From: Microcystaceae cyanobacterium | Lineage (GTDB): Bacteria > Cyanobacteriota > Cyanobacteriia > Cyanobacteriales > Microcystaceae | NCBI GenBank assembly: GCA_041746575.1 | Contig: JBGTGT010000012.1 | Location: 12,943 to 76,942 of the forward strand | Reading direction: 5' to 3' | DNA: 64,000 nucleotides | Shown: positions 22,488 through 33,061 of the stretch, piece by piece | Position numbering within the stretch: position 1 is the stretch's first letter | Layout of the letters: every line of letters begins with the position of its first letter | Made by a program: the position numbers and the translations under genes | Notes under the pieces: generated by a model | The model's input: only the letters and a program-made list of their open reading frames with translations | Told to the model about the DNA's origin: nothing | The model's database searches: none

Positions 22488-23582
22488 TTAGTCTTTTAAA
22501 CCGTGCCTACTTGCTAAAAAGTGTTTACCTTGTTTTTCGCCATCTTCGATTAAACGATGAATATTAGTTGGACTGCGATCCAATTTACTTTCATAATTGA
22601 GACTTTCGGCTAATTCTTCTGACATTTTAATCAAGGGGATGTGGTAAGATTTATCAGGATCAGCAGCAAAAATTTTAGGGATTTTAATGGGTTCAAAAAT
22701 GGAAGTTTCTGTCAAAAAGTCTTCTTTAAATGCTCCTCTTAAAAAAAGATCGTTGAGAAATTCAATTTGTCCTAATCCTTGTAGTAAAGATACATTTCCT
22801 TCCAGTTCATTACGACGATCTGCAATATCATCGGGTTGAACTGGAATTTTTTTACAAGTTGTCGGATTTACTTTAATGACCCAAATTTCATGGGGAATAT
22901 TTTCAATTCCAACGTAATCCCGTTTAATCAACACATCAATAGGAGGATTATCAGAAAATAACCCATCCCAATAAGTCATTTCATCAATAGAAACCGCAGG
23001 AAAAATACTCGGAACACAAGCAGATGCTAAGAGGTGTTCAATCCGAATGGGTTCATGATAAGAGTCGAATTTGTGTAGTTTCCCACTCAAAATATTACAA
23101 GCTCCAATTAATAAAATCGGTGGTTCGGGCTGCGCTCCCCAATGATTTAATTCATCAAAATCAACATGGTGCTTTAGTAATACTTCAAGGTCTGTAAAAC
23201 GGCGACGCAATCCCAACGTTGCCAGTTCAAACCATGCCTTAGTTAAGGGAGAGGCAGGACTAAAATTAAACTGAGGAATTAATCCTTTACTGCCCCATTC
23301 GATAGTTTTAATTGCCGCATCGTTGAAGAACTTTTCTGCTACCGTTTGCGCCGTATTATCTTCCCAAAAATCAATGAGTCTCTGCCAAACGGAATTGTCT
23401 CCTTTTTTCAAAGCGTACCATATTAAAAAAGCGCAGATTGCCCCACCAGACGTACCACTTAAACTCACAATTTCAAATTGGTCTTGAATGTTGCTGTCAA
23501 ACAAGGACTTAAGTACACCCGCCGTAAATGCGGTTTGGCTTCCCCCTCCCTGACAAGCAATAGCAACTTTCGGTTTATTCAT
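22488..23582 (-). CDS. Patatin-like phospholipase/esterase
   Basis: ACQGGGS, GTSGG nucleophile motif, ASAC.P, WDG. Confidence 0.92.
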   Translation of the reverse strand: MNKPKVAIACQGGGSQTAFTAGVLKSLFDSNIQDQFEIVSLSGTSGGAICAFLIWYALKKGDNSVWQRLIDFWEDNTAQTVAEKFFNDAAIKTIEWGSKGLIPQFNFSPASPLTKAWFELATLGLRRRFTDLEVLLKHHVDFDELNHWGAQPEPPILLIGACNILSGKLHKFDSYHEPIRIEHLLASACVPSIFPAVSIDEMTYWDGLFSDNPPIDVLIKRDYVGIENIPHEIWVIKVNPTTCKKIPVQPDDIADRRNELEGNVSLLQGLGQIEFLNDLFLRGAFKEDFLTETSIFEPIKIPKIFAADPDKSYHIPLIKMSEELAESLNYESKLDRSPTNIHRLIEDGEKQGKHFLASRHGLKD

Positions 23583-23891: not shown

Positions 23892-23943
23892 TAAAAAAAG
23901 AACTTTAGGGAAAATAATACTATTTTAAAAAAATAGTGTAGTA

Positions 23944-24585
23944 TTATCGTTTTTTACCGGGGGGAATAAAGCGAATTTCTATTCTTCTTCTATTAGCATC
24001 GGCATTCCGATTCAGAGGAGACAACTCTCCAGAAGAAAGATACAATTGACCTGCTGAATAAGCTTTAAATTTAACGCTTTTTAGTTGACCCGTTTCTTCA
24101 ATTTTCTGGACAACAGCTAAGGCTCTCATTAAGCCTAAGTCCGTATTTGATCCCGGCTTCAACTTGTTCACCGTTTGTTCATTTTTAGCAACCTTTTCTA
24201 AAATTACATCTAAATTTCCCATTAAGCTAATGACTTGTCCGTCAGTATGACCAATAATTTGTACAAAATCAATTTCGTGTTTTTGGATGGTTTCTTGAAT
24301 GGTTGGAATAACTTGATTGATAATATATTTTTGCAGTTCTGGGGTTAGTTCTGCACTATTAGAAATGAAGCTAAATTGACCCGATTTTTCATCAATGACG
24401 ATAGGAGAGGCACTTTGCAATCTTTGATTAGCTTCCTGTAAGTTCTGATTTAAGCGTTGGGATTCTAACAAAGCAAGTAGAAGAAATAAGCTTAAAATCA
24501 TAAAGGCATTTGACATCAAATCTGTAAAAGCAGGATAGACATCAAGGGAGTTTGAGTTTTCAATATATCGATTTCGTCGTTTCAT
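23944..24585 (-). CDS. MotB/ZorB-like protein: single TM with channel Asp plus OmpA-like peptidoglycan-binding domain
   Basis: YPAFTDLMSNAFMILSLFLLLAL, F..NSAEL, IIGHTD, LGLMRALAV, NRRRIEIRF. Confidence 0.88.
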   Translation of the reverse strand: MKRRNRYIENSNSLDVYPAFTDLMSNAFMILSLFLLLALLESQRLNQNLQEANQRLQSASPIVIDEKSGQFSFISNSAELTPELQKYIINQVIPTIQETIQKHEIDFVQIIGHTDGQVISLMGNLDVILEKVAKNEQTVNKLKPGSNTDLGLMRALAVVQKIEETGQLKSVKFKAYSAGQLYLSSGELSPLNRNADANRRRIEIRFIPPGKKR

Positions 24586-24588
24586 AAG

Positions 24589-26358
24589 TCAAACAAATAA
24601 TCCTCTTTTGTTATTAAACTTTATAGTCTCCTCTAAGATTTGATATTGCTTTTCTAATATCTGCTTATTATTTTGACTAACTGCATCAACTAAGTTGGAT
24701 AACTTAGAATTTATAATTGACAAGTCCTTTAAGTATATTTCAATAGTTTGAAGAATTTGTTGGTTTTCGTCATTTTTAATATTAATCAGATTATTAAGAG
24801 AATCAGATATATTGTTTCCTAAGTTTTGAATATCGGTACTTAAAGTCTCTTGGAAAGTTTCAAAGCTTTCAATGCTCTGAAGCAATTTGTCGCTAAAAGA
24901 GTGGAAATTATTAGTTCCACTTTCTAGTTGTTTTTGATTCAGTTGAATAAAATTAACTAAATTTTTGTTAATATCGCTTATTTGACTTTCTAAATTAACT
25001 ATTTTGTAAATCGAGCTTTGTAAATCTTGTCTAAAAGATGTCATAGGCTTTATAGAGTTAGTAAGGTCTGAAATTGCTTCAGAGAATTGACCATAGGTTG
25101 TCATTAAGCCTTGAGTTGCGCTAAATAGATTATCTGCAAATTGACTTTGTTCAATTTTTTCTGATGCTTCAAGAAAAACCAAAGCACTATCTTGTATTTT
25201 AGTTGTCGAATCTTCAAAAGATAAATAAACTTGTTCAGCTAAATTATTAGTTTTTTTGTTCCCTTCAATCATTTTGCTGATATTTTTATTAAATAAAGCT
25301 GTTGATTCAGTAAATTTCTCTTGTGTCGCTGCCAAACTAGAAGTCAAATTTTCTAGATTATCTGAGAATTTACTTTGTTCTATTTTTTCAGAAGCAGCTT
25401 GAAAAATCAAGGCACTACTTTCGAGCTTTTGAGAAGTTTCTTTAACAGAATCTGTAATTTCAATTGCTCTTTGTATTTGCTGTTCTAAAATGTAAGTAGA
25501 AAGTTGAAAAGTTGTTGCACCATTGGCTAATGTACCACAGGCTTCTGTTAAACGTTCATAGACTTGTTTAGCTAATAAGGCAGATTCTTTATTTCCATCA
25601 GCTATTTGTTGAGCAACACGACCTAATGAAGACTCAACTGCTTTAGTCACATTCTCATGAAATCGAGTTAAAAACTCATTTTGTTGTTCTACCATACGAT
25701 TTACTGATTTATCAAGTCTTGTGTTCCCTTCAATGGTCGGATGAAAAACGTTATCTAAATAATCTTCTAAGGAATTTACTAACTTATTTTTGGCTAATCC
25801 GGTATTATATTTAAGATTAATAAGGGTCAGAAAAGAACTAAAACTTAAGGCAATCAAGCTTGTAAAGAAAGCAATGCCCATATTTTGTAAAGGCTTTTGT
25901 AAATGACCAACTAGATTGCTATTATCAATGCTTCCTTTATGAATAATCCAACCGATATCGTTTAAGTTTAACGTAATTCCTAGAAACGTGCCTAAAAGCC
26001 CAAAGGTGAGTAATAAGTTAGGTAAAATTCTGCTAAAGTAATCCCACTGTTCACAGCGTAAAGAATAAGATAGAAAAGAAAAGGTTTCTTCACTATAGAT
26101 TCCGTCTAGCAATGCTGAGGTATTCACATATTCTAAGTGAAGACTAGCTCGTCGAAATCTGTCCTCTAATTTTCTTACAATTAAGGGTTGCTGTCCATGA
26201 GGATTTCTAGTGAGTAATCTAGTAACTTTCTGACTGGCATCAGCTAGATGATGATAAAGCTTAACTCGTATTCCCCAAACAATGATGGTGGGAAAAATGA
26301 CAAATACCAGAGTAAAGATAATAAGATAAGGGGGGAAAAGTTGAATTAAGTTAACCAT
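24589..26358 (-). CDS. MotA/ZorA-like ion-channel subunit: three TM segments plus long helical tail
   Basis: N-terminal TM, LPNLLLTFGLLGTFLGITL, MGIAFFTSLIAL, then ~400 aa of Ser/Gln/Glu-rich helical sequence with internal repeats; 3 bp from the MotB-like gene. Confidence 0.85.
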   Translation of the reverse strand: MVNLIQLFPPYLIIFTLVFVIFPTIIVWGIRVKLYHHLADASQKVTRLLTRNPHGQQPLIVRKLEDRFRRASLHLEYVNTSALLDGIYSEETFSFLSYSLRCEQWDYFSRILPNLLLTFGLLGTFLGITLNLNDIGWIIHKGSIDNSNLVGHLQKPLQNMGIAFFTSLIALSFSSFLTLINLKYNTGLAKNKLVNSLEDYLDNVFHPTIEGNTRLDKSVNRMVEQQNEFLTRFHENVTKAVESSLGRVAQQIADGNKESALLAKQVYERLTEACGTLANGATTFQLSTYILEQQIQRAIEITDSVKETSQKLESSALIFQAASEKIEQSKFSDNLENLTSSLAATQEKFTESTALFNKNISKMIEGNKKTNNLAEQVYLSFEDSTTKIQDSALVFLEASEKIEQSQFADNLFSATQGLMTTYGQFSEAISDLTNSIKPMTSFRQDLQSSIYKIVNLESQISDINKNLVNFIQLNQKQLESGTNNFHSFSDKLLQSIESFETFQETLSTDIQNLGNNISDSLNNLINIKNDENQQILQTIEIYLKDLSIINSKLSNLVDAVSQNNKQILEKQYQILEETIKFNNKRGLFV

Positions 26359-26380
26359 GAGTAATATCCTCAGATAAAGT

Positions 26381-29300
26381 TTAAAGTCCTAATAGGTTCT
26401 TTTTCGCTACTTCAAATTCTTCTTTGCTTAGTAAGCCCTCTCTATACCCGTCCATCAATTCTTTAAGTTCAGACATTCCATTATTTTCAACTTCAAGAAT
26501 TGGTTCGACTACTTGAGCATCATCTTCAATACTTGGTTCAATGATTGCTTTAGATTTAGGTAAAGATTGCTGATGATTTTTTGACGTAGGAAGAAATTGA
26601 CCAGAAGAGGTATGTAAATTAGGAGGTAAAGATTTCGATTTGATTTCTTCATTAATTTTAGCTATGAAGCGACTAATGATGCCTTCTTTAGCTGTTTCTG
26701 TAGCCGTGGCAACTTCTCCCACGACTTTGGCTTTATAAGAAAAATTTACATCCTTTTCACTAAAGTTTTTAGCAATAGCAGAAAAATTAAGAATTAAGGG
26801 TAAATAGTAAGTTTTCCAACTTGGCGAATTAATTTTTATCTGCGCTACTAGCTTATTATAAATATTGTGTATGATGTCTGTTAAATCTTTTCTTGATGCT
26901 ATTTGCTCTAAAGCCTCTCTCCAATTTAAACTTAATGGGATAATATGCTGTTGATTAAAAAGAGCATCTTGAAAAGGCAATTCGTATTTTTGTAATTCAC
27001 TATTATATTTTATTTCTTTGCAAGCTAAACAAGGATAAAATACATATTCGAGTTCTTCTATTACCTTAGCTTCAATCGGAATAATGTCAGTAAACATTAT
27101 ATTATAATCATTATGAAGAACGGTATTTTGAAGATGAGTTTTATAGTGATTTCTTAGTTGAGATAAGCCAGTAATAATTCTTAAAGGAAATCCTGCATAT
27201 TGTTTCAGAATAACAATTTCATCTTCTGCTTGAATAGCGGTAAAAGAATTTTCAGAAATTCCTATATCTTCGGTAAGAGTTTGTTTAAATTGTTTAACTT
27301 CTGGCTCATTTGTTTGTTTAAAACCAATGAAAAGATTACGTTTTTTGGCATCATCTTTGAAATGAGCATTAGAAAGATTTAAGTGTAAAAGAGGTTCAGA
27401 AGATTGTAAAATCTGTTCTAAGCGTTTAGAACGATCCGCAATAGCATAAGTTTCCATAAAACGCTTAATCGCAGATTGAACTTGTGTCATTCCCACAGAA
27501 CCAAATTGACGTTCAACTGTCATATTAGTTTTACTTTTTAATTCTTGTTCATCGATAAGATTTCTTGTAACTAAACTAAATAAAGATTGTCCTACCCCTA
27601 TCGCTTCAGTAACTTGATGGCTGACAAAAACCAGTTGTTTTGAAGAACCGTGATCGGGAATACAATCGTTTATGCTATCTTCAGGGAACATGGCCTCTCC
27701 ATTCATTTCATCTAGATTAAGCTGCTTGAGTTCTTCTTCTTGTTTTTGATAAGCTATCTGAAGATTATCCAGTAATTTCTTGAATGTTTGAATTTGATTG
27801 AAGCGAAGCGTTAAATGTTGCTGTAATTCCTCAATAATTTTTAGGGATTCTTCATTAACAGCCATTTGAAAGTTATGTTCAATGAGTTTAGCAATTTTTG
27901 GAGCAGCATGACTCATTACTTCTTGAATTTTACTATATTTTTGCTTTTCAAAGAAAGGAAGACTATGTTTTTGTTGCAAATCCTCTATTTCTTGTTTTAT
28001 TTCTAACCAAGCTTGCTCTATCTTGTCGAGATCATACATTTCTTGAAAATCTTGTTTTCTTTCTTCCATATCTCGTTGCTCTTGGTTAAATTGAGTTCGT
28101 AGTGCTTCTAGAAAGTTCAAAGTATTGTCAAGAGAAAAATTAGAATGATTAGGACTGAGTAATTTTTCTAAAAATAAATCAATGTCTTGTTTAAACTTGC
28201 CTAATAAATTAGGTTGAATATTTTGTAAATGAGTCAACCAAATTCCTCTAACTTTTTCACCTTCTCCGGGTTTAACTTTATAAAACTCTTTTTGAAACTT
28301 TTGTCTTAAATTTTCCTTATATTCCTCAATATCTTTTGAGGTTTTACATTCTAAATCTTGGCAAGAATTTCGCCATCTGGTTAAAGCTTGTTTAAAAGTT
28401 TTATTATTGTCTTGTGCCGTTTCTTGTAATTGGCTTCTAAAATAATCTTTAATTCTTTTATCGGCTGTCCATTTTAAAACAAATTGGTCTAATAAATCTC
28501 TGGCATCTGAACTTTGACCGATTCCCTGTAACCAAAAGTTAATTAATTTTCCTCCCAGTCGATTTAAAGACATTTGAACAAGACGATCACGGGTAAAATA
28601 AATAGCTGAAAGTCCGAAAGTTAGATAACGCTGTGACATTTTAAAAGGATGCAAATCATACCCTAAGAGAATATCAGGTTGTATAAAGTTATTTCGATGA
28701 GATTTAATAATCCCTGATAACTCACTCGAAAATGCTAAAAAGATTTTATAAGCAATTAAGTTACACAATTTGCCTTTGTCGCTAATTTTATGATCTCCTA
28801 AAGTTTGTTCGGAAACTAAATAGGTAAAATCAAAAGGAGGACGCTGTTCTTTTACATAAATTTGATTATGTTTACTATAACAGGCTTCAAAAGTTGATTC
28901 ATCATTCGTATAATAATTTAACTCTTTAAGAGCAGCATAAGTATTAGCATTCATCGTAGAAGTATTACCATACAATTTAGGAGAAATAACTAAATAAGCA
29001 ATTACATCAAGATTATTTTTATTTTGATAAAGATGTCTTAAACTATAGGCAACATCTAAAAAAATTCCACTTCCTGTACCACCACAGAGAGAACCTACCA
29101 CAAATATGTCTAATCCTTCTTGAATATAAAATCCTTTTTTTAGCATAAACTGTTCATTTTCATTTCCTCTAGTACGATTCTCAGCTGCTTCTACTGCTTC
29201 TTGAAACTGAAGATAATTATGAAAAAAGGCTAATCTTCCTATAGGACGAATCCCTTGTGCGCCATCTTCAATTGATTTTATTTGCTCTTTGAGTCTTGGA

Positions 29301-29641
29301 TCTAACCAACTTTCAATATGAGAATAAGGACTTTCAAATAAGGTTTTATGATCTAGTTCGTGAACTAAATCATTAACGACTTGCGAATTCATTTTAGCAA
29401 CTACTTTTTCAGATTCTTGAAATAAAATATTTTCTCCATGATAAGTGTTTCCTGTTGGTAAACCACCATGATTAAATGCTCCTTTATCAGTATCAACTTG
29501 AACAAAACTAATAATTGGCATTTCGCTTAATTTCCCATATCGCTCAATAATAAACCGTCGAATTCGCATTAAAACATCTTGACCTGTTCCTCCTAAACCG
29601 ATACAGATTGTTCGTTTGATAGCACGAGTTTGTTGAGTCAT
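26381..29641 (-). CDS. Tubulin/FtsZ-like GTPase (Tubulin_2 / FtsZl type) with coiled-coil middle and C-terminal SHOCT-like helix pair
   Basis: IGLGGTG, VDTD, GAQGIRPIGRLAF, tubulin signature VGSLCGGTGSG, NANTYAALKEL; C-terminal LKELMDGYREGLLSKEEFEVAKKNLLG. Confidence 0.88.
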   Translation of the reverse strand: MTQQTRAIKRTICIGLGGTGQDVLMRIRRFIIERYGKLSEMPIISFVQVDTDKGAFNHGGLPTGNTYHGENILFQESEKVVAKMNSQVVNDLVHELDHKTLFESPYSHIESWLDPRLKEQIKSIEDGAQGIRPIGRLAFFHNYLQFQEAVEAAENRTRGNENEQFMLKKGFYIQEGLDIFVVGSLCGGTGSGIFLDVAYSLRHLYQNKNNLDVIAYLVISPKLYGNTSTMNANTYAALKELNYYTNDESTFEACYSKHNQIYVKEQRPPFDFTYLVSEQTLGDHKISDKGKLCNLIAYKIFLAFSSELSGIIKSHRNNFIQPDILLGYDLHPFKMSQRYLTFGLSAIYFTRDRLVQMSLNRLGGKLINFWLQGIGQSSDARDLLDQFVLKWTADKRIKDYFRSQLQETAQDNNKTFKQALTRWRNSCQDLECKTSKDIEEYKENLRQKFQKEFYKVKPGEGEKVRGIWLTHLQNIQPNLLGKFKQDIDLFLEKLLSPNHSNFSLDNTLNFLEALRTQFNQEQRDMEERKQDFQEMYDLDKIEQAWLEIKQEIEDLQQKHSLPFFEKQKYSKIQEVMSHAAPKIAKLIEHNFQMAVNEESLKIIEELQQHLTLRFNQIQTFKKLLDNLQIAYQKQEEELKQLNLDEMNGEAMFPEDSINDCIPDHGSSKQLVFVSHQVTEAIGVGQSLFSLVTRNLIDEQELKSKTNMTVERQFGSVGMTQVQSAIKRFMETYAIADRSKRLEQILQSSEPLLHLNLSNAHFKDDAKKRNLFIGFKQTNEPEVKQFKQTLTEDIGISENSFTAIQAEDEIVILKQYAGFPLRIITGLSQLRNHYKTHLQNTVLHNDYNIMFTDIIPIEAKVIEELEYVFYPCLACKEIKYNSELQKYELPFQDALFNQQHIIPLSLNWREALEQIASRKDLTDIIHNIYNKLVAQIKINSPSWKTYYLPLILNFSAIAKNFSEKDVNFSYKAKVVGEVATATETAKEGIISRFIAKINEEIKSKSLPPNLHTSSGQFLPTSKNHQQSLPKSKAIIEPSIEDDAQVVEPILEVENNGMSELKELMDGYREGLLSKEEFEVAKKNLLGL

Positions 29642-29656
29642 GATATTGCTCCAAGG

Positions 29657-30802
29657 TTAAGATTTAATAATGTGGATAACAAGTTCAAAATTTTGATCTT
29701 CTTTTAACTGATTAGGACAATTAATTTTAAATACAGACTGGTTAATCGGTATTTTTTTAGTGATTTTAGTTCCTTGAGTATAAAGAGGCGCACAATTAGT
29801 GGGTTTTAAATAAAGTTGGTTGCCTGTTCGTTCTAAATATCCCCTTGTTTCTTCACCCGGACAGTCAATAGTTCTCAAACCCTCTCCTCCAATAGCAATC
29901 TTTTGAAGATTTTTAAGCTTATATTTTTGCTTATCATCATCCTCATCTAAAACGACTTTAACCTCTAGTTTCCAAGGCTTTCTTAGACTTAAGCAATATT
30001 TGATGACCCATCCTCCTGCTATTATTCCTAAGAAAATAATTAATAAAGGAATCCATAGCTGTTGCCATAAATATTCATTGATTAAACAGGTTTGTTTACC
30101 GCCCGGTGCAGGAGTACAAAATTCTTGAGCGGTAGGGGGAATATCAATTACTGAAAGCTGATAAGTGTTATTATTATTCGTAATAATTTTTTGCGATCGC
30201 TGATTTAAGGGTAATGCCCTAATCCAACTTTCTCGTTCTTTGGTTTCAGCAGAATTCTTTTGTCGAAAAGGACTATTAGCTGGTGTTTCGGTCCAAATAT
30301 CTGAAGAAATTCCGGCACTTATTAATAAAGGAGCATCGGTAATCCAAACAGCAGATTGAAATTTAATCGGTTTATTTTCTACTAACCGGCATTGATTCAG
30401 TTGCGCTAATCCTTGATAAACAAATAATTCAGTGCGTTGGATATCTGTATTCTGAATATTTGGATTAGATTCAGCAGGAATTACTGCAAGGATCCTATCA
30501 ATCTCTTCTTTATTTCCTTTAAAAAAAATGGGTTCAGGTAAAGAATGATTTTTAGACGAAAGAGACTTAATTTCTGAAGCAAAGAGAACCACATAAACCC
30601 GATCCTGAGATTGTAAACTATCTTGAACAATCTGGCGTAATCGAGTCCGGCCTTCATCATTAAAATTAACACTTCCTGTCAAGTCAATCGCTAGGGTAAC
30701 ATCTCGACCTTTATGTAAACGTGCGACTAAATCAAGTCCCGTTTTTTGCCAAACTTTAAGGGGTTCACCCAGTGTTACCGATAAACAATTATCAATTTTC
30801 AT
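29657..30802 (-). CDS. vWA-domain membrane protein with C-terminal FHA-like beta domain
   Basis: MIDAS-like IDLTGS, NTDI and WITDAP; TM LWIPLLIIFLGIIAGGWVI; beta-rich tail (KIAIGG...RGYLERTGNQLYLKP). Confidence 0.75.
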   Translation of the reverse strand: MKIDNCLSVTLGEPLKVWQKTGLDLVARLHKGRDVTLAIDLTGSVNFNDEGRTRLRQIVQDSLQSQDRVYVVLFASEIKSLSSKNHSLPEPIFFKGNKEEIDRILAVIPAESNPNIQNTDIQRTELFVYQGLAQLNQCRLVENKPIKFQSAVWITDAPLLISAGISSDIWTETPANSPFRQKNSAETKERESWIRALPLNQRSQKIITNNNNTYQLSVIDIPPTAQEFCTPAPGGKQTCLINEYLWQQLWIPLLIIFLGIIAGGWVIKYCLSLRKPWKLEVKVVLDEDDDKQKYKLKNLQKIAIGGEGLRTIDCPGEETRGYLERTGNQLYLKPTNCAPLYTQGTKITKKIPINQSVFKINCPNQLKEDQNFELVIHIIKS

Positions 30803-30829: not shown

Positions 30830-33061
30830 TTAAGCCCAAGGATCAGGAACTTTAAAAGGATGATGAGGAAAAGATTGAGCTTCCTCTTCTGCAAAATCAA
30901 TAGTAATTGTTTCTTTACTGGGATCGAGTTCCCGTTTAAGCTTATTCCAATCCCCCGGATCGTTCAGTTCTTCATAGAAACCGTCCGGAGAAGCGATTGT
31001 TTCACCATAGGCAATGGTTTTTTCAAAGAACTTAACGCCCTCAGAGGATAAAGGCGGCGAAATAGGAGCAGGAGAAGTTACTTTTAATGGGGACAAGGAA
31101 GTCGGTGACGGGGCGATAGGATATATCTCCTGTTTCAATTGGTCAAATTCGCGGGTTAATTCTGTTAATAGTTCTTCAATCGCTGTCAATCGGCGGACGA
31201 GGTTCGGCTCTCCTCCAGTCGTTGGTTTCTCTAGCGAAGGGGCTACAGCAGTTAAGTCATGACCGAAAAGTCGTTCAATTTCATCGAGAGTGGTTTCTCC
31301 TGCATAAACAAACGTCAAAGCTTGATCGAGAAGCGATGACATACCTGCTTGAGTGGCTGAGGTTAACAGTTGTTCTGCCGTTGCCTTCTGACTAATAAGG
31401 GCTTTTAAAGAAGGGTCGACGTTAAAAACTTCATAAATTCCAACTTGTCCTTGATAACCTTGGCCGTTACAGGTACGACATAAACGACCTTTCACTTGTG
31501 CTTGTTCGATGGCCGTTGGATTTAAGACGTTTGCTTTGTATAGGGAAGTCGGAGAAGGGGAAAGTCCAAATTTAGCCTTTTGTGCCGCATCGGGTTCATG
31601 AATTAAGCGGCAAGTGGGACAAAGGCGACGGATGAGGCGTTGATTAATGATACCGCTCAGGGTGTCTCCTAAGAGCGAAGCTGTCATGCCTAAATCTGCC
31701 AAATGCGTCAGGGCATGAGGAATAGATGGTACATCCAAGCTGGTTAAGATATAACGACCTCGGGCGGCTGCATCGGTCAAATGATGGGCAATTTCTGCAT
31801 CTCCCAAACAGTCGACGAAAATGACATCTACATCTTGTCGAAGCAAAGATTGCAACATCTTGCCGTAGGTTCGCTCTTTCTGAGGATTAACTTGCACTTG
31901 CGTCACGTTTGGCAGGGTGCGTTCAATGGGATCTTCAAGGGATACTAAACTTAACCCTTGTTCACTTTTTTGAGACAGCAAGGTATAGAGTGTCGTCGTT
32001 TTGCCAGAATGGGCGGGGCCGATGATCAACACTAAGCCCGATGATCGTCTAATTAGCCTTTGAACTGCAGAATCTTCGAGGAAGGGGCGGATTTGGGGGA
32101 TGGTACGGCAGTCATCGATGATTTTAATGATTGCTTTTTCGCCTCGCTGACTGGGGAGAATATTGATTAATAAATTCACGGATCTTCCCGCAAAATTACG
32201 CTGAATTTGCCCTTTTTGTAAGTGCTGTCGTTGATTAATATCTATTTCTGCCATCAATTTGAGTCGAGAGAGGATGGCCGGTGCGACTTGGATCGGCAAG
32301 GGATCTAAGGACGGTTGCAACAATCCATCTTGCCGAAAACGAACACTGAGTAAGTTCTCTTGGGGATCGATGTGAATTTCTGAGGCTTTGCTCGTTAAAG
32401 CTTTTTCAAGGATCTTATTGACTAATTTGATAATCGGGGCTTCGGATGCCTGATCCAGTTGGCTGATATCTTCTTCCTCCATAGCGGCCAGAATAGGGGG
32501 CATTTGCTCAAAGATTTCTGTCACGTCTACAATCGTCGGACTGACCATCTCTGTGGCTTGAGAAGCACGGGGATAAATTTGTGACCAAAGCCGTTGATAA
32601 TCTTCGAGGGTAATACCAATACGCTGTAATTCGACCCCTTTCTGTTGAAGACGCTGTTTGAGGGGAGTGAGAAGATGGATTTGACTGGGATCGACCATCG
32701 CTATTCTCAAAATGGCGGGCTTTTGGTTGTTTAAACTTAACGGTAATAGTTGATGCACTCGGCAAAGTTCTGCCATTTCTAATGATTCGATGATTTTTGC
32801 GATTTTTTCGGGATGGATTTCCGTATGGCTTTTAAAATATTCGACGCCGTAGAGAATTTTCAGGCTAAAGAGATGTTGTTTTTTATGTTGATCGAGAACA
32901 GAGGAGGGCAAAGGATGACCCGTAATATTCGGTAAAATTTCCAGCAGGGAACGACCTGTTTTGCGGGATTCGATCAAGGCCTGTTGCATCTGGGGGATAG
33001 TCATATATCCCGATTGAAGCAATTCGTTCGTCAAAGAAGAGTGATCGGATTGGGACGACAT
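30830..33061 (-). CDS. GspE/PilB paralog (PilB2-like) with degenerate ATPase motifs
   Basis: Clear paralog of the PilB at 8949 (ASEIHIDP, RFRQDG, GPAHSGKTTT, EDPIE, tetra-Cys). Walker B reads DVIFVDCLGD and the His box reads LTSLDV. Confidence 0.88.
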   Translation of the reverse strand: MSSQSDHSSLTNELLQSGYMTIPQMQQALIESRKTGRSLLEILPNITGHPLPSSVLDQHKKQHLFSLKILYGVEYFKSHTEIHPEKIAKIIESLEMAELCRVHQLLPLSLNNQKPAILRIAMVDPSQIHLLTPLKQRLQQKGVELQRIGITLEDYQRLWSQIYPRASQATEMVSPTIVDVTEIFEQMPPILAAMEEEDISQLDQASEAPIIKLVNKILEKALTSKASEIHIDPQENLLSVRFRQDGLLQPSLDPLPIQVAPAILSRLKLMAEIDINQRQHLQKGQIQRNFAGRSVNLLINILPSQRGEKAIIKIIDDCRTIPQIRPFLEDSAVQRLIRRSSGLVLIIGPAHSGKTTTLYTLLSQKSEQGLSLVSLEDPIERTLPNVTQVQVNPQKERTYGKMLQSLLRQDVDVIFVDCLGDAEIAHHLTDAAARGRYILTSLDVPSIPHALTHLADLGMTASLLGDTLSGIINQRLIRRLCPTCRLIHEPDAAQKAKFGLSPSPTSLYKANVLNPTAIEQAQVKGRLCRTCNGQGYQGQVGIYEVFNVDPSLKALISQKATAEQLLTSATQAGMSSLLDQALTFVYAGETTLDEIERLFGHDLTAVAPSLEKPTTGGEPNLVRRLTAIEELLTELTREFDQLKQEIYPIAPSPTSLSPLKVTSPAPISPPLSSEGVKFFEKTIAYGETIASPDGFYEELNDPGDWNKLKRELDPSKETITIDFAEEEAQSFPHHPFKVPDPWA

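Follow-up and report, generated by a model that had tools for sequence, protein, structure and literature searches.

What would a membrane ion motor do when it is encoded directly beside a tubulin-like GTPase? This question is raised by a cassette of four genes from a Microcystaceae cyanobacterium, found in a 64,000-nt stretch of contig JBGTGT010000012.1 (positions 12,943–76,942 of the forward strand; hereafter the window, to whose positions all coordinates refer unless another record is named). All window features described here lie on the reverse strand. In their order on that strand, the genes encode a protein with a vWA domain, a transmembrane (TM) segment, and an FHA domain (gene 1, 29657–30802, 381 aa), an FtsZl1/Tubulin_2 GTPase (gene 2, 26381–29641, 1086 aa), a ZorA-like protein (gene 3, 24589–26358, 589 aa), and a ZorB/MotB-like protein (gene 4, 23944–24585, 213 aa). 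The list of open reading frames (ORFs) and their translations give the same intervals of 15, 22, and 3 bp between the co-oriented genes as the initial annotation of this DNA, and the domains it proposed for the four products were borne out by profile matches and, for gene 1, by an AlphaFold model, Foldseek comparison, and MIDAS residues. The cassette is the cyanobacterial form of an FtsZl1-centred operon catalogued in 2010, the last two genes of which are read here as a ZorAB-type pair. As a whole, it might be a Zorya-like motor that senses the state of the envelope, controls a GTPase polymer at the membrane, and has a cytoskeletal output, a tentative reading to which we give somewhat less than an even chance.

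Relationship to the FtsZl1 operons

FtsZl1 proteins, which diverge more strongly than most other members of the tubulin/FtsZ superfamily, were defined by Makarova and Koonin (Biol Direct 2010, 5:33; PMC2875224). The operons described there combine FtsZl1 with vWA, OmpA-like, GTPase, and kinase genes and with the uncharacterised families A1–A2 and B1–B9, and they are predicted to form a membrane remodelling system. For Anabaena variabilis (Ava_1847–1850), Additional file 5 of that paper lists a vWA protein of COG2304 (381 aa), FtsZl1 (1085 aa), a B7 protein (524 aa), and a COG1360 protein (215 aa). Family B7, represented by Ava_1849, is called a 'membrane-associated protein' in Additional file 6, and COG1360 is labelled 'flagellar motor protein'. 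The same quartet appears in the supplement for Trichodesmium (Tery_1705–1709), Cyanothece 8802 (Cyan8802_4287–4290), and Microcystis NIES-843 (MAE_58760–58800), together with a single COG1360 row for Nodularia (N9414) and a MotA/OmpA version in Deinococcus.

The cassette in the window agrees with these operons in gene content and order and is orthologous to them. Gene 2 has the Tubulin_2 domain, the long coiled-coil region, and the helical C-terminal part of FtsZl1; the vWA gene adjoins it with an intact metal-ion-dependent adhesion site (MIDAS) and COG2304-labelled orthologs; and the B7 and COG1360/OmpA-like genes follow downstream, as in Ava_1849/1850 and Tery_1706/1705. Indeed, the match in one of the related loci analysed below (L028, 10001–11692) corresponds to NC_008312 2594470–2596161, which are exactly the coordinates of Tery_1706. 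Since the supplement already lists vWA / FtsZl1 / B7 / COG1360, this gene cluster was known before, and the suggestion of the initial annotation that it is a candidate new system is not supported. The accompanying supposition, that no catalogued system fully matches the locus, stands in part: the cluster was catalogued in 2010, but the ZorAB motor reading is not in that account.

The main text of the 2010 paper, which is older than Zorya, contains no occurrence of MotA; it treats the OmpA-like proteins as beta-barrel or porin-like, and its authors did not find a tubulin C-terminal domain. In contrast to this account, B7 and COG1360 are read here as a ZorAB-type stator, and the tubulin fold may resume after an insertion of about 400 aa. 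No paper linking Zorya or ZorAB with FtsZl1 or Tubulin_2 was found in a literature search outside which most subscription journals lay, and none was found for the cassette's locus tags. The ZorAB-type reading of B7 and COG1360 is the new part and appears to be unpublished; applied to the cyanobacterial and Deinococcus partners, it offers the first concrete, testable mechanism for FtsZl1.

A putative ZorAB-type motor pair

The product of gene 3 has three TM segments according to a TM scan (TM1, aa 1–35; TM2, aa 111–130, 25969–26028; TM3, aa 160–182), followed by a helical tail of about 385 aa (aa ~205–589, 24592–25746). This is the architecture of ZorA, i.e., a MotA/ExbB-like membrane domain with a long tail. 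TM2 reads LPNLLLTFGLLGTFLGI and includes the invariant residues P113 and T124. Over aa 13–345, the protein matches the PADLOC profile ZorA1 (E = 4e-18), with six more ZorA/LmuB profiles also matching. Its score with Pfam MotA_ExbB is 14.9 bits (E = 0.022), below the cut-off of 22.9, so that it does not qualify as a flagellar MotA. Among PDB sequences, the N-terminal 300 aa gave weak matches to ZorA chains (8vvn_C, E = 0.018), and an alignment with 8qyh places P113 and T124 on ZorA P136 and T147. In EcZorA, Thr147 contacts the essential Asp26 of ZorB (Hu et al.). Both positions are invariant in 22 close relatives, and over 49 relatives T124 is still invariant and P113 nearly so. A PDB search with the full gene 3 profile returned mostly coiled-coil matches attributable to composition and was set aside.

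Gene 4 encodes a TM segment (aa 19–45) containing D22 (24520–24522) and an OmpA-like peptidoglycan-binding domain (aa 73–207, 23965–24369) with GHTD, R154, and R201, which are the TM aspartate and the wall-binding domain by which ZorB is recognised. It matches PADLOC ZorB1 (7.6e-8) and ZorB3 (6.1e-7) as well as Pfam OmpA (0.008). The MotB-type rows of NCBIfam lie far below their cut-offs, so it does not qualify as a flagellar MotB, and a search of PDB sequences with the ZorB-like protein gave no match. In an alignment of gene 4 with 23 homologs, two of them Deinococcus proteins, the residues F20, D22 (within FTDLMS), L23, M24, N26, the GHT motif, R154, and R201 are kept in all 24 sequences. 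The ZorA- and ZorB-like identity proposed earlier for the last two genes is supported by these profiles, and both the profile similarity and the key residues speak well for the ZorAB-type reading of genes 3 and 4. By homology, B7 and COG1360 would form a 5:2 ion-driven stator, with ZorA-like pentamers contributing the TM2 threonine T124 and a cytoplasmic coiled-coil tail of ~385 residues, and ZorB-like dimers providing peptidoglycan anchoring and the channel aspartate D22.

The characterised Zorya systems (E. coli type I, 8QYD; Shewanella, 8VVN; PMC11946911, PMC11890865) thus share with the cassette a MotA/ExbB-like subunit that has three TM segments and a long helical tail, a MotB-like subunit that combines a channel aspartate with a peptidoglycan-binding domain, and the aligned Pro/Thr pair of TM2, and PADLOC ZorA/ZorB are the best matches. 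According to the Zorya papers, the ZorAB tail passes the signal of phage invasion to effectors. These are ZorC/ZorD, ZorE, or ZorF/ZorG in Zorya, whereas the partners in the cassette are the tubulin-like GTPase and the vWA-TM-FHA protein. As had been noted from the sequence, no known Zorya effector is recognisable: PADLOC assigned no family to either the vWA or the tubulin-like protein, and no fifth conserved gene that could be ZorC and ZorD, ZorE, or ZorF and ZorG exists in the 80 related loci described below. Phage defence has been demonstrated for Zorya; the scores of the cassette lie far below the curated ZorA cut-offs.

Within the tail of gene 3, the motif ASEKIEQS occurs twice, at aa 322 and 398, i.e., 76 residues apart, inside similar stretches of ~38 aa; self-BLAST of the tail found no internal repeat. 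ZorA-like homologs are 500–817 aa long where the locus is complete, and those of Microcystis reach 932 aa. The motif copies and this spread therefore suggest that tail length varies by repeat-like segments. Over 55 loci, the length of the tail and that of the GTPase gave a Spearman coefficient of 0.15 (p = 0.27), so a ruler-type relation between them is unsupported.

Conservation of the four-gene unit

A word-indexed search yielded 659 relatives of the ZorA-like protein at E ≤ 1e-3, the majority being Microcystis proteins wrongly named 'methyl-accepting chemotaxis protein'; an exhaustive search gave 362 representative clusters. Gene order was analysed in the best 80 of 363 encoding stretches found in species-representative genomes with a profile of 22 relatives, and all 80 are cyanobacterial. 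The complete four-gene set is present in 59 of the 80 loci, with a single order and strand in all 59 and median gaps of 17, 72, and 56 bp, while the other 21 are mostly cut by contig ends or contain broken genes. When the flanking ORFs were clustered, the four families occurred in 77, 71, 67, and 64 of the 80 loci. Since the family ranking next was present in no more than 18, the system has no fifth member and its flanks are variable. This four-gene arrangement is far beyond chance. Moreover, the mean column identity is 51–56% for all four proteins over their full length.

A phylum-wide sample of 401 cyanobacterial genomes, evenly drawn from 156 genera, gave a complementary picture. The ZorA-like profile matched 59 genomes from 40 genera and none of the 225 genomes of twelve families. 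Carriage within genera is patchy (2/5, 2/5, 2/19, and 3/8), but it reaches 8/9 in one genus (g21) and 25/45 in one family (f6). Full-length orthologs of gene 2 were found in 38 of the sampled genomes; a ZorA-like match is present in all 38 and is adjacent in 37. Conserved proximity of the motor pair to the tubulin/vWA pair, on which the initial annotation had staked its proposal, is thus borne out by both samples. The four genes are a genuine, old, and conserved cassette that travels and is retained as a single unit. A distant ZorA-like relative (26% identity) was also noted in Synechococcus elongatus PCC 11802 and IITB strains, which grow fast and are used in the laboratory.

The four genes are likewise one compositional island. 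Their G+C content (GC) is 0.28–0.36, compared with 0.40 over the whole genome and 0.41–0.47 in the gene upstream, and their GC at third codon positions is 0.19–0.28, compared with 0.29–0.41 in neighbouring genes. The cassette is lower in GC than its flanks in 53 of 55 loci, with a mean difference of 0.049. Recent horizontal transfer was rejected as the sole cause of the low GC because the AT-richness recurs in these 53 genomes.

The pairing of motor and tubulin recurs in another phylum, on Deinococcus plasmids. Among the 15 plasmid records matched by the Tubulin_2 domain, plasmid 2 of Deinococcus deserti has the order hypothetical / hypothetical / tubulin-like / 411-aa ZorA-like (1.6e-7) / OmpA-ZorB-like (8.7e-6), and a D. 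radiophilus plasmid has this order with an additional IS630 insertion (ZorA-like, 7.1e-7). An hhalign comparison of the cyanobacterial ZorA-like profile with the Deinococcus protein gave a probability of 93.4%. A plasmid search with the gene 3 protein itself gave no match at E ≤ 1e-5, and viral contigs contained no confirmed relative of the ZorA-like or FtsZl1 profile.

Other plasmids carry tubulin-like genes in different company. On Meiothermus taiwanensis plasmid pMtWR-220 (L083, 6318–14395), genes for a vWA protein, a tubulin-like protein, a 679-aa hypothetical protein, and a BrxL-like Lon protease (PADLOC BrxL, 2.7e-105) run in one direction, and DUF1156, Swt1-HEPN, and ATP-binding genes are neighbours; this FtsZl1-vWA pair looks like part of a defence island. 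The tubulin-like gene of the conjugative Nostoc punctiforme plasmid pNPUN01 (L086) stands beside CHAT/caspase genes, and that of Azospirillum plasmid p2 (L085) beside CHAT/caspase-family genes and several OmpA-family, PEGA, and DUF4384 genes.

Could the ZorAB-like pair and the vWA-FtsZl1 pair then be unrelated modules with separate functions that merely stand side by side? At least nine genomes have ZorAB-like pairs that belong to the same family but adjoin neither a vWA nor an FtsZl1 gene, mostly among housekeeping genes, namely those for His-tRNA synthetase, an FtsJ-like methyltransferase, a phycobilisome protein, ResB/DsbD, and PhoH. In one genome (G074), the vWA and FtsZl1 genes and a 607-aa ZorA-like gene lie at two sites of the same contig (2.18 Mb and 0.02 Mb), about 2 Mb apart, and the ZorA-like gene has no recognisable ZorB-like gene beside it. 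In its genus-mate G200, the vWA/FtsZl1 and ZorA-like genes are adjacent. The stand-alone pairs and the split arrangement count against a strict coupling of motor and GTPase, and they indicate that the motor needs no GTPase in cis. Furthermore, vWA-tubulin pairs without a motor are found on the Nostoc and Meiothermus plasmids, and solitary Tubulin_2 paralogs exist, one of them in the host genome of the cassette. Against separate functions, however, stand the adjacency of the two pairs in 37 of the 38 genomes with this orthologous group, the identical order and strand of all 59 complete loci at short median distances, the recurrence of the linkage in Deinococcus, and the shared compositional island. 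We regard two unrelated modules as very improbable.

The solitary paralog in the same genome (contig C84, 29864–33133) encodes 1089 aa with 24.5% identity to gene 2, and no vWA or motor gene adjoins it. This paralog class is present in ~25 of the 401 genomes, including small-genome lineages (E ~1e-80, N-terminal 430 aa only). A variant one-strand cassette was also observed (L103, G218:C189, 1188–12098), with genes for a 528-aa protein weakly matching Tubulin_2 (1e-4), a Uma2 nuclease, a 1090-aa protein with a weak FtsA/actin-like match (1.2e-4), and two proteins of 413 and 450 aa with no clear family, the latter showing only a weak, below-cut-off match to DUF5339. It ends with a ZorA-like (682 aa) and then a ZorB-like (208 aa) gene, and it may represent a second cytoskeletal partner set of the same motor family.

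The GTPase and its predicted membrane partner

Gene 2 consists of a Tubulin_2 domain (aa 12–367, 28541–29608; Pfam, 3.8e-98), a helical region (aa 373–767, 27341–28525), an alpha/beta region (aa 768–1004), a disordered stretch (aa 1008–1053, 26483–26620), and two SHOCT-like helices at the C-terminus (aa 1054–1086, 26384–26482; weak SHOCT match, 0.014). Its T1 loop (G15–G20), the GGTGSG sequence of the T4 loop (aa 187–192, 29066–29083), and E307 (28721–28723) are invariant in 29 orthologs, and invariant columns extend along the whole protein. In the AlphaFold (AF2) model, built from the 29-sequence alignment with a predicted local distance difference test (pLDDT) score of 80.6, E307 lies between helices 289–304 and 309–320; by homology, it may be the acidic residue at the T7/H8 catalytic position. 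The protein is thus predicted to have a tubulin/FtsZ GTPase fold with intact T1 and T4 loops.

Foldseek relates the model to tubulins and CetZ with a probability of 1.0. With VIA-align, the Z scores are 24.1 for CetZ (307 residues aligned), 20.3 for TubZ, 20.0 for BtubA and an Asgard tubulin, and 19.6 for FtsZ. Whole tubulin, CetZ, and TubZ chains align from residue 8 to residues ~840–893 of the model, far beyond the Tubulin_2 domain, and strands and helices are present at aa 768–855. From this range and this secondary structure, the model suggests that the tubulin C-terminal domain is present and is split from the GTPase domain by a helical insertion of ~400 residues (aa 373–767), with long helices at aa 435–747, one of which comprises 78 residues. 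The FtsZl1 profile retrieved nothing useful from PDB sequences, and in the ESM Atlas the C-terminal part of gene 2 gave only a 0.76 match to a Tubulin_2 cluster and no new lead.

Division FtsZ ends in a disordered linker and a C-terminal peptide, and its partners FtsA and ZipA are membrane anchors. Similarly, gene 2 has a tubulin fold followed by a disordered linker and a short helical end, and it is encoded beside a membrane protein that could anchor the GTPase. It is not FtsZ itself, from which it differs in its ~400-aa helical insertion, its total length, its SHOCT-like end, and its vWA partner.

That partner, the product of gene 1, matched no sequence family of Pfam, PADLOC, or NCBIfam, and a PDB search with its profile gave nothing useful. 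Its AlphaFold (AF2) model (pLDDT 86) contains an N-terminal vWA-like domain (aa 1–243), one hydrophobic segment forming a TM helix (aa 244–273, 29984–30073), and a C-terminal domain (aa 276–381, 29660–29977) in which Foldseek recognises the FHA fold (probability 1.0, TMt 0.6–0.72). The N-terminal domain shows weak Foldseek matches to vWA-bearing chains. In a 29-sequence alignment, the MIDAS-like residues D40, T42, and S44 (DLTGS, 30671–30685; pattern D40xT42xS44), D120, and D156 are invariant, and T119 is nearly so. Homology therefore points to a single-pass membrane partner with an intact MIDAS. Complex prediction of gene 1 with the GTPase domain (aa 1–372) and with the peptide aa 1040–1086 of gene 2 returned a score of 0.00, which is uninformative either way.

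The topology of gene 1 bears on a different explanation, namely that the vWA protein works as a TolA/TonB-like arm across the envelope and is driven by the motor, with the GTPase as a cytoplasmic regulator. A periplasmic vWA head would then act on the wall or outer membrane, in adhesion, secretion, or surface movement. Inner-membrane-tethered vWA proteins syntenic with TolQR-like motors have been proposed as such 'force transducers' (Mol Biol Evol 2025, PMC12204202), and gene 1 resembles them in being tethered to the inner membrane and encoded with a 5:2-type motor pair. The TM helix of gene 1 is followed by the positively charged sequence KYCLSLRKPWK, and the positive-inside rule would accordingly place the FHA domain inside and the vWA domain outside. 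An invariant cysteine pair, C229 and C239, lies beside the TM helix on the vWA side, and in the window the cassette is preceded, at a distance of 27 bp, by a type II/IV secretion ATPase gene. Yet gene 1 has no signal peptide, and the export of a large N-terminal domain without one is unusual. No secretion ATPase family is among those found in at least 5 of the 80 loci, and the 1086-aa GTPase, the best-conserved partner, would be left without a role. In PMC12204202, the vWA proteins have an N-terminal TM helix and a periplasmic C-terminal vWA domain, whereas gene 1 has its vWA domain at the N-terminus and an FHA domain past the TM helix; this helix lacks the SHLS/His motif given there for TolA/TonB-like transducers, and tubulin, present in the cassette, has no occurrence in that paper. 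A trans-envelope force transducer is therefore quite unlikely.

Defence or physiology

In the preferred reading, that of an envelope-sensing motor with a GTPase polymer as its output, the wall-anchored motor would be turned on, as in Zorya, by a disturbance of the envelope, most probably by the entry of phage or foreign DNA. Ion flow would rotate ZorA around ZorB, and the tail would relay the signal inward, where it would control GTP-dependent assembly of FtsZl1 at the membrane in place of nuclease recruitment. The vWA protein may serve as the anchor or nucleator of this assembly. The output would be local remodelling of membrane and cytoskeleton (sealing, exclusion, or growth arrest) with no cutting of DNA. 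We infer the link from motor to GTPase from tight and recurrent gene linkage only. A more specific version would add a fourth type to the Zorya-like systems, with a cytoskeletal module as the effector arm in place of a nuclease: the ~55-nm tail of a peptidoglycan-anchored 5:2 rotary motor would trigger, or mechanically organise, the assembly of a tubulin-like GTPase on a vWA anchor. This version is possible but less likely than not.

A role in defence or conflict is suggested by the ZorAB homology, the patchy distribution, the AT-richness in 53 of 55 loci, the Deinococcus plasmid carriage, and the company of related vWA-tubulin pairs. The enrichment of defence genes around the cassette, which the initial annotation had proposed to survey, was assessed with the six nearest flanking ORFs of loci from different genera (24 loci and 144 ORFs, of 156 selected in 26 loci). 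As a control, 129 ORFs were taken from carrier genomes, in 14 regions at a distance of 400 kb from the ZorA-like match, with PADLOC matches counted at E ≤ 1e-8. No clear enrichment was found in this rough test: 22 of the 144 flanking ORFs were positive compared with 14 of the 129 control ORFs (odds ratio 1.48, Fisher p = 0.37), and many matches in both sets were generic (Uma2-like PDC-S03, kinases, ABC-type ATPases).

This result weighs against a Zorya-like role, as do several others in addition to the stand-alone motor pairs and the split genome described above. The NCBIfam profile antiphage_ZorA_4 gave 21.9 bits (6.8e-5) on gene 3, compared with a cut-off of 500. Gene 1 sends mixed signals on its topology, the positive charges coming after the TM helix although no signal peptide precedes it, and the Arg/Ser/His residues of the usual phosphothreonine-binding motif of FHA domains, a conserved Arg and Ser-x-x-His, are not evident by eye in the alignment of its FHA domain. 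The cassette is frequent in some lineages, as in the family and genus named above, which fits a cell-biological role too. A largely vertical pattern in cyanobacteria, reported in PMC2875224, is also compatible with such a role.

These points lend some weight to a physiological machine for membrane remodelling or envelope maintenance, in which the motor powers or positions the tubulin-like polymer during normal growth or stress and phage play no part. The prediction of membrane remodelling made in 2010 (PMC2875224), the high prevalence in some families, the full-length conservation of all four proteins, flanks without defence-gene enrichment, and the lack of confirmed relatives in viral contigs are all in line with it, and the stand-alone ZorAB-like pairs lie in conserved housekeeping synteny (phycobilisome and FtsJ-like genes; L105/L106). 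Conversely, 342 of the 401 sampled genomes had no match and carriage varies within genera, the cassette is AT-rich relative to its flanks, the flanks differ among lineages, and the Deinococcus version is plasmid-borne. In addition, the sole characterised long-tailed MotAB relatives, as far as the cited Zorya papers describe them, work in phage defence. Such a machine is conceivable, but we consider it less probable than not by a clear measure.

If the envelope-sensing motor with a cytoskeletal output is real, no earlier case is known in which an ion-driven stator is coupled to a tubulin-like polymer; it would widen the range of what 5:2 ion motors drive and extend Zorya-type sensing beyond nuclease effectors. 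If it is not, the cassette is still a widespread and conserved envelope machine of cyanobacteria that form blooms or fix nitrogen (Microcystis, Trichodesmium, Nostoc, Anabaena).

Neighbouring genes in the window

Directly past the stop codon of gene 4, an AT-rich inverted repeat is followed by T runs (23905–23945); it may be a weak terminator and is absent from the list of a consensus scan. That scan for promoters and terminators gave counts no higher than in shuffled sequence and is uninformative. A gene for a patatin-like phospholipase (22488–23582; PF01734, 1.5e-17) lies 361 bp downstream of the cassette and has an intermediate GC of 0.33–0.43. Upstream, the co-oriented gene of the type II/IV secretion ATPase (30830–33061, 743 aa) matches T2SSE (1.1e-75) and MshEN (1.9e-6). 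As the 80 related loci show neither the patatin-like nor the ATPase gene as a conserved neighbour, both were excluded from the system. Transcription of the secretion ATPase gene possibly reads through into the cassette, and its product has a long Pro/Ser-rich C-terminal extension.

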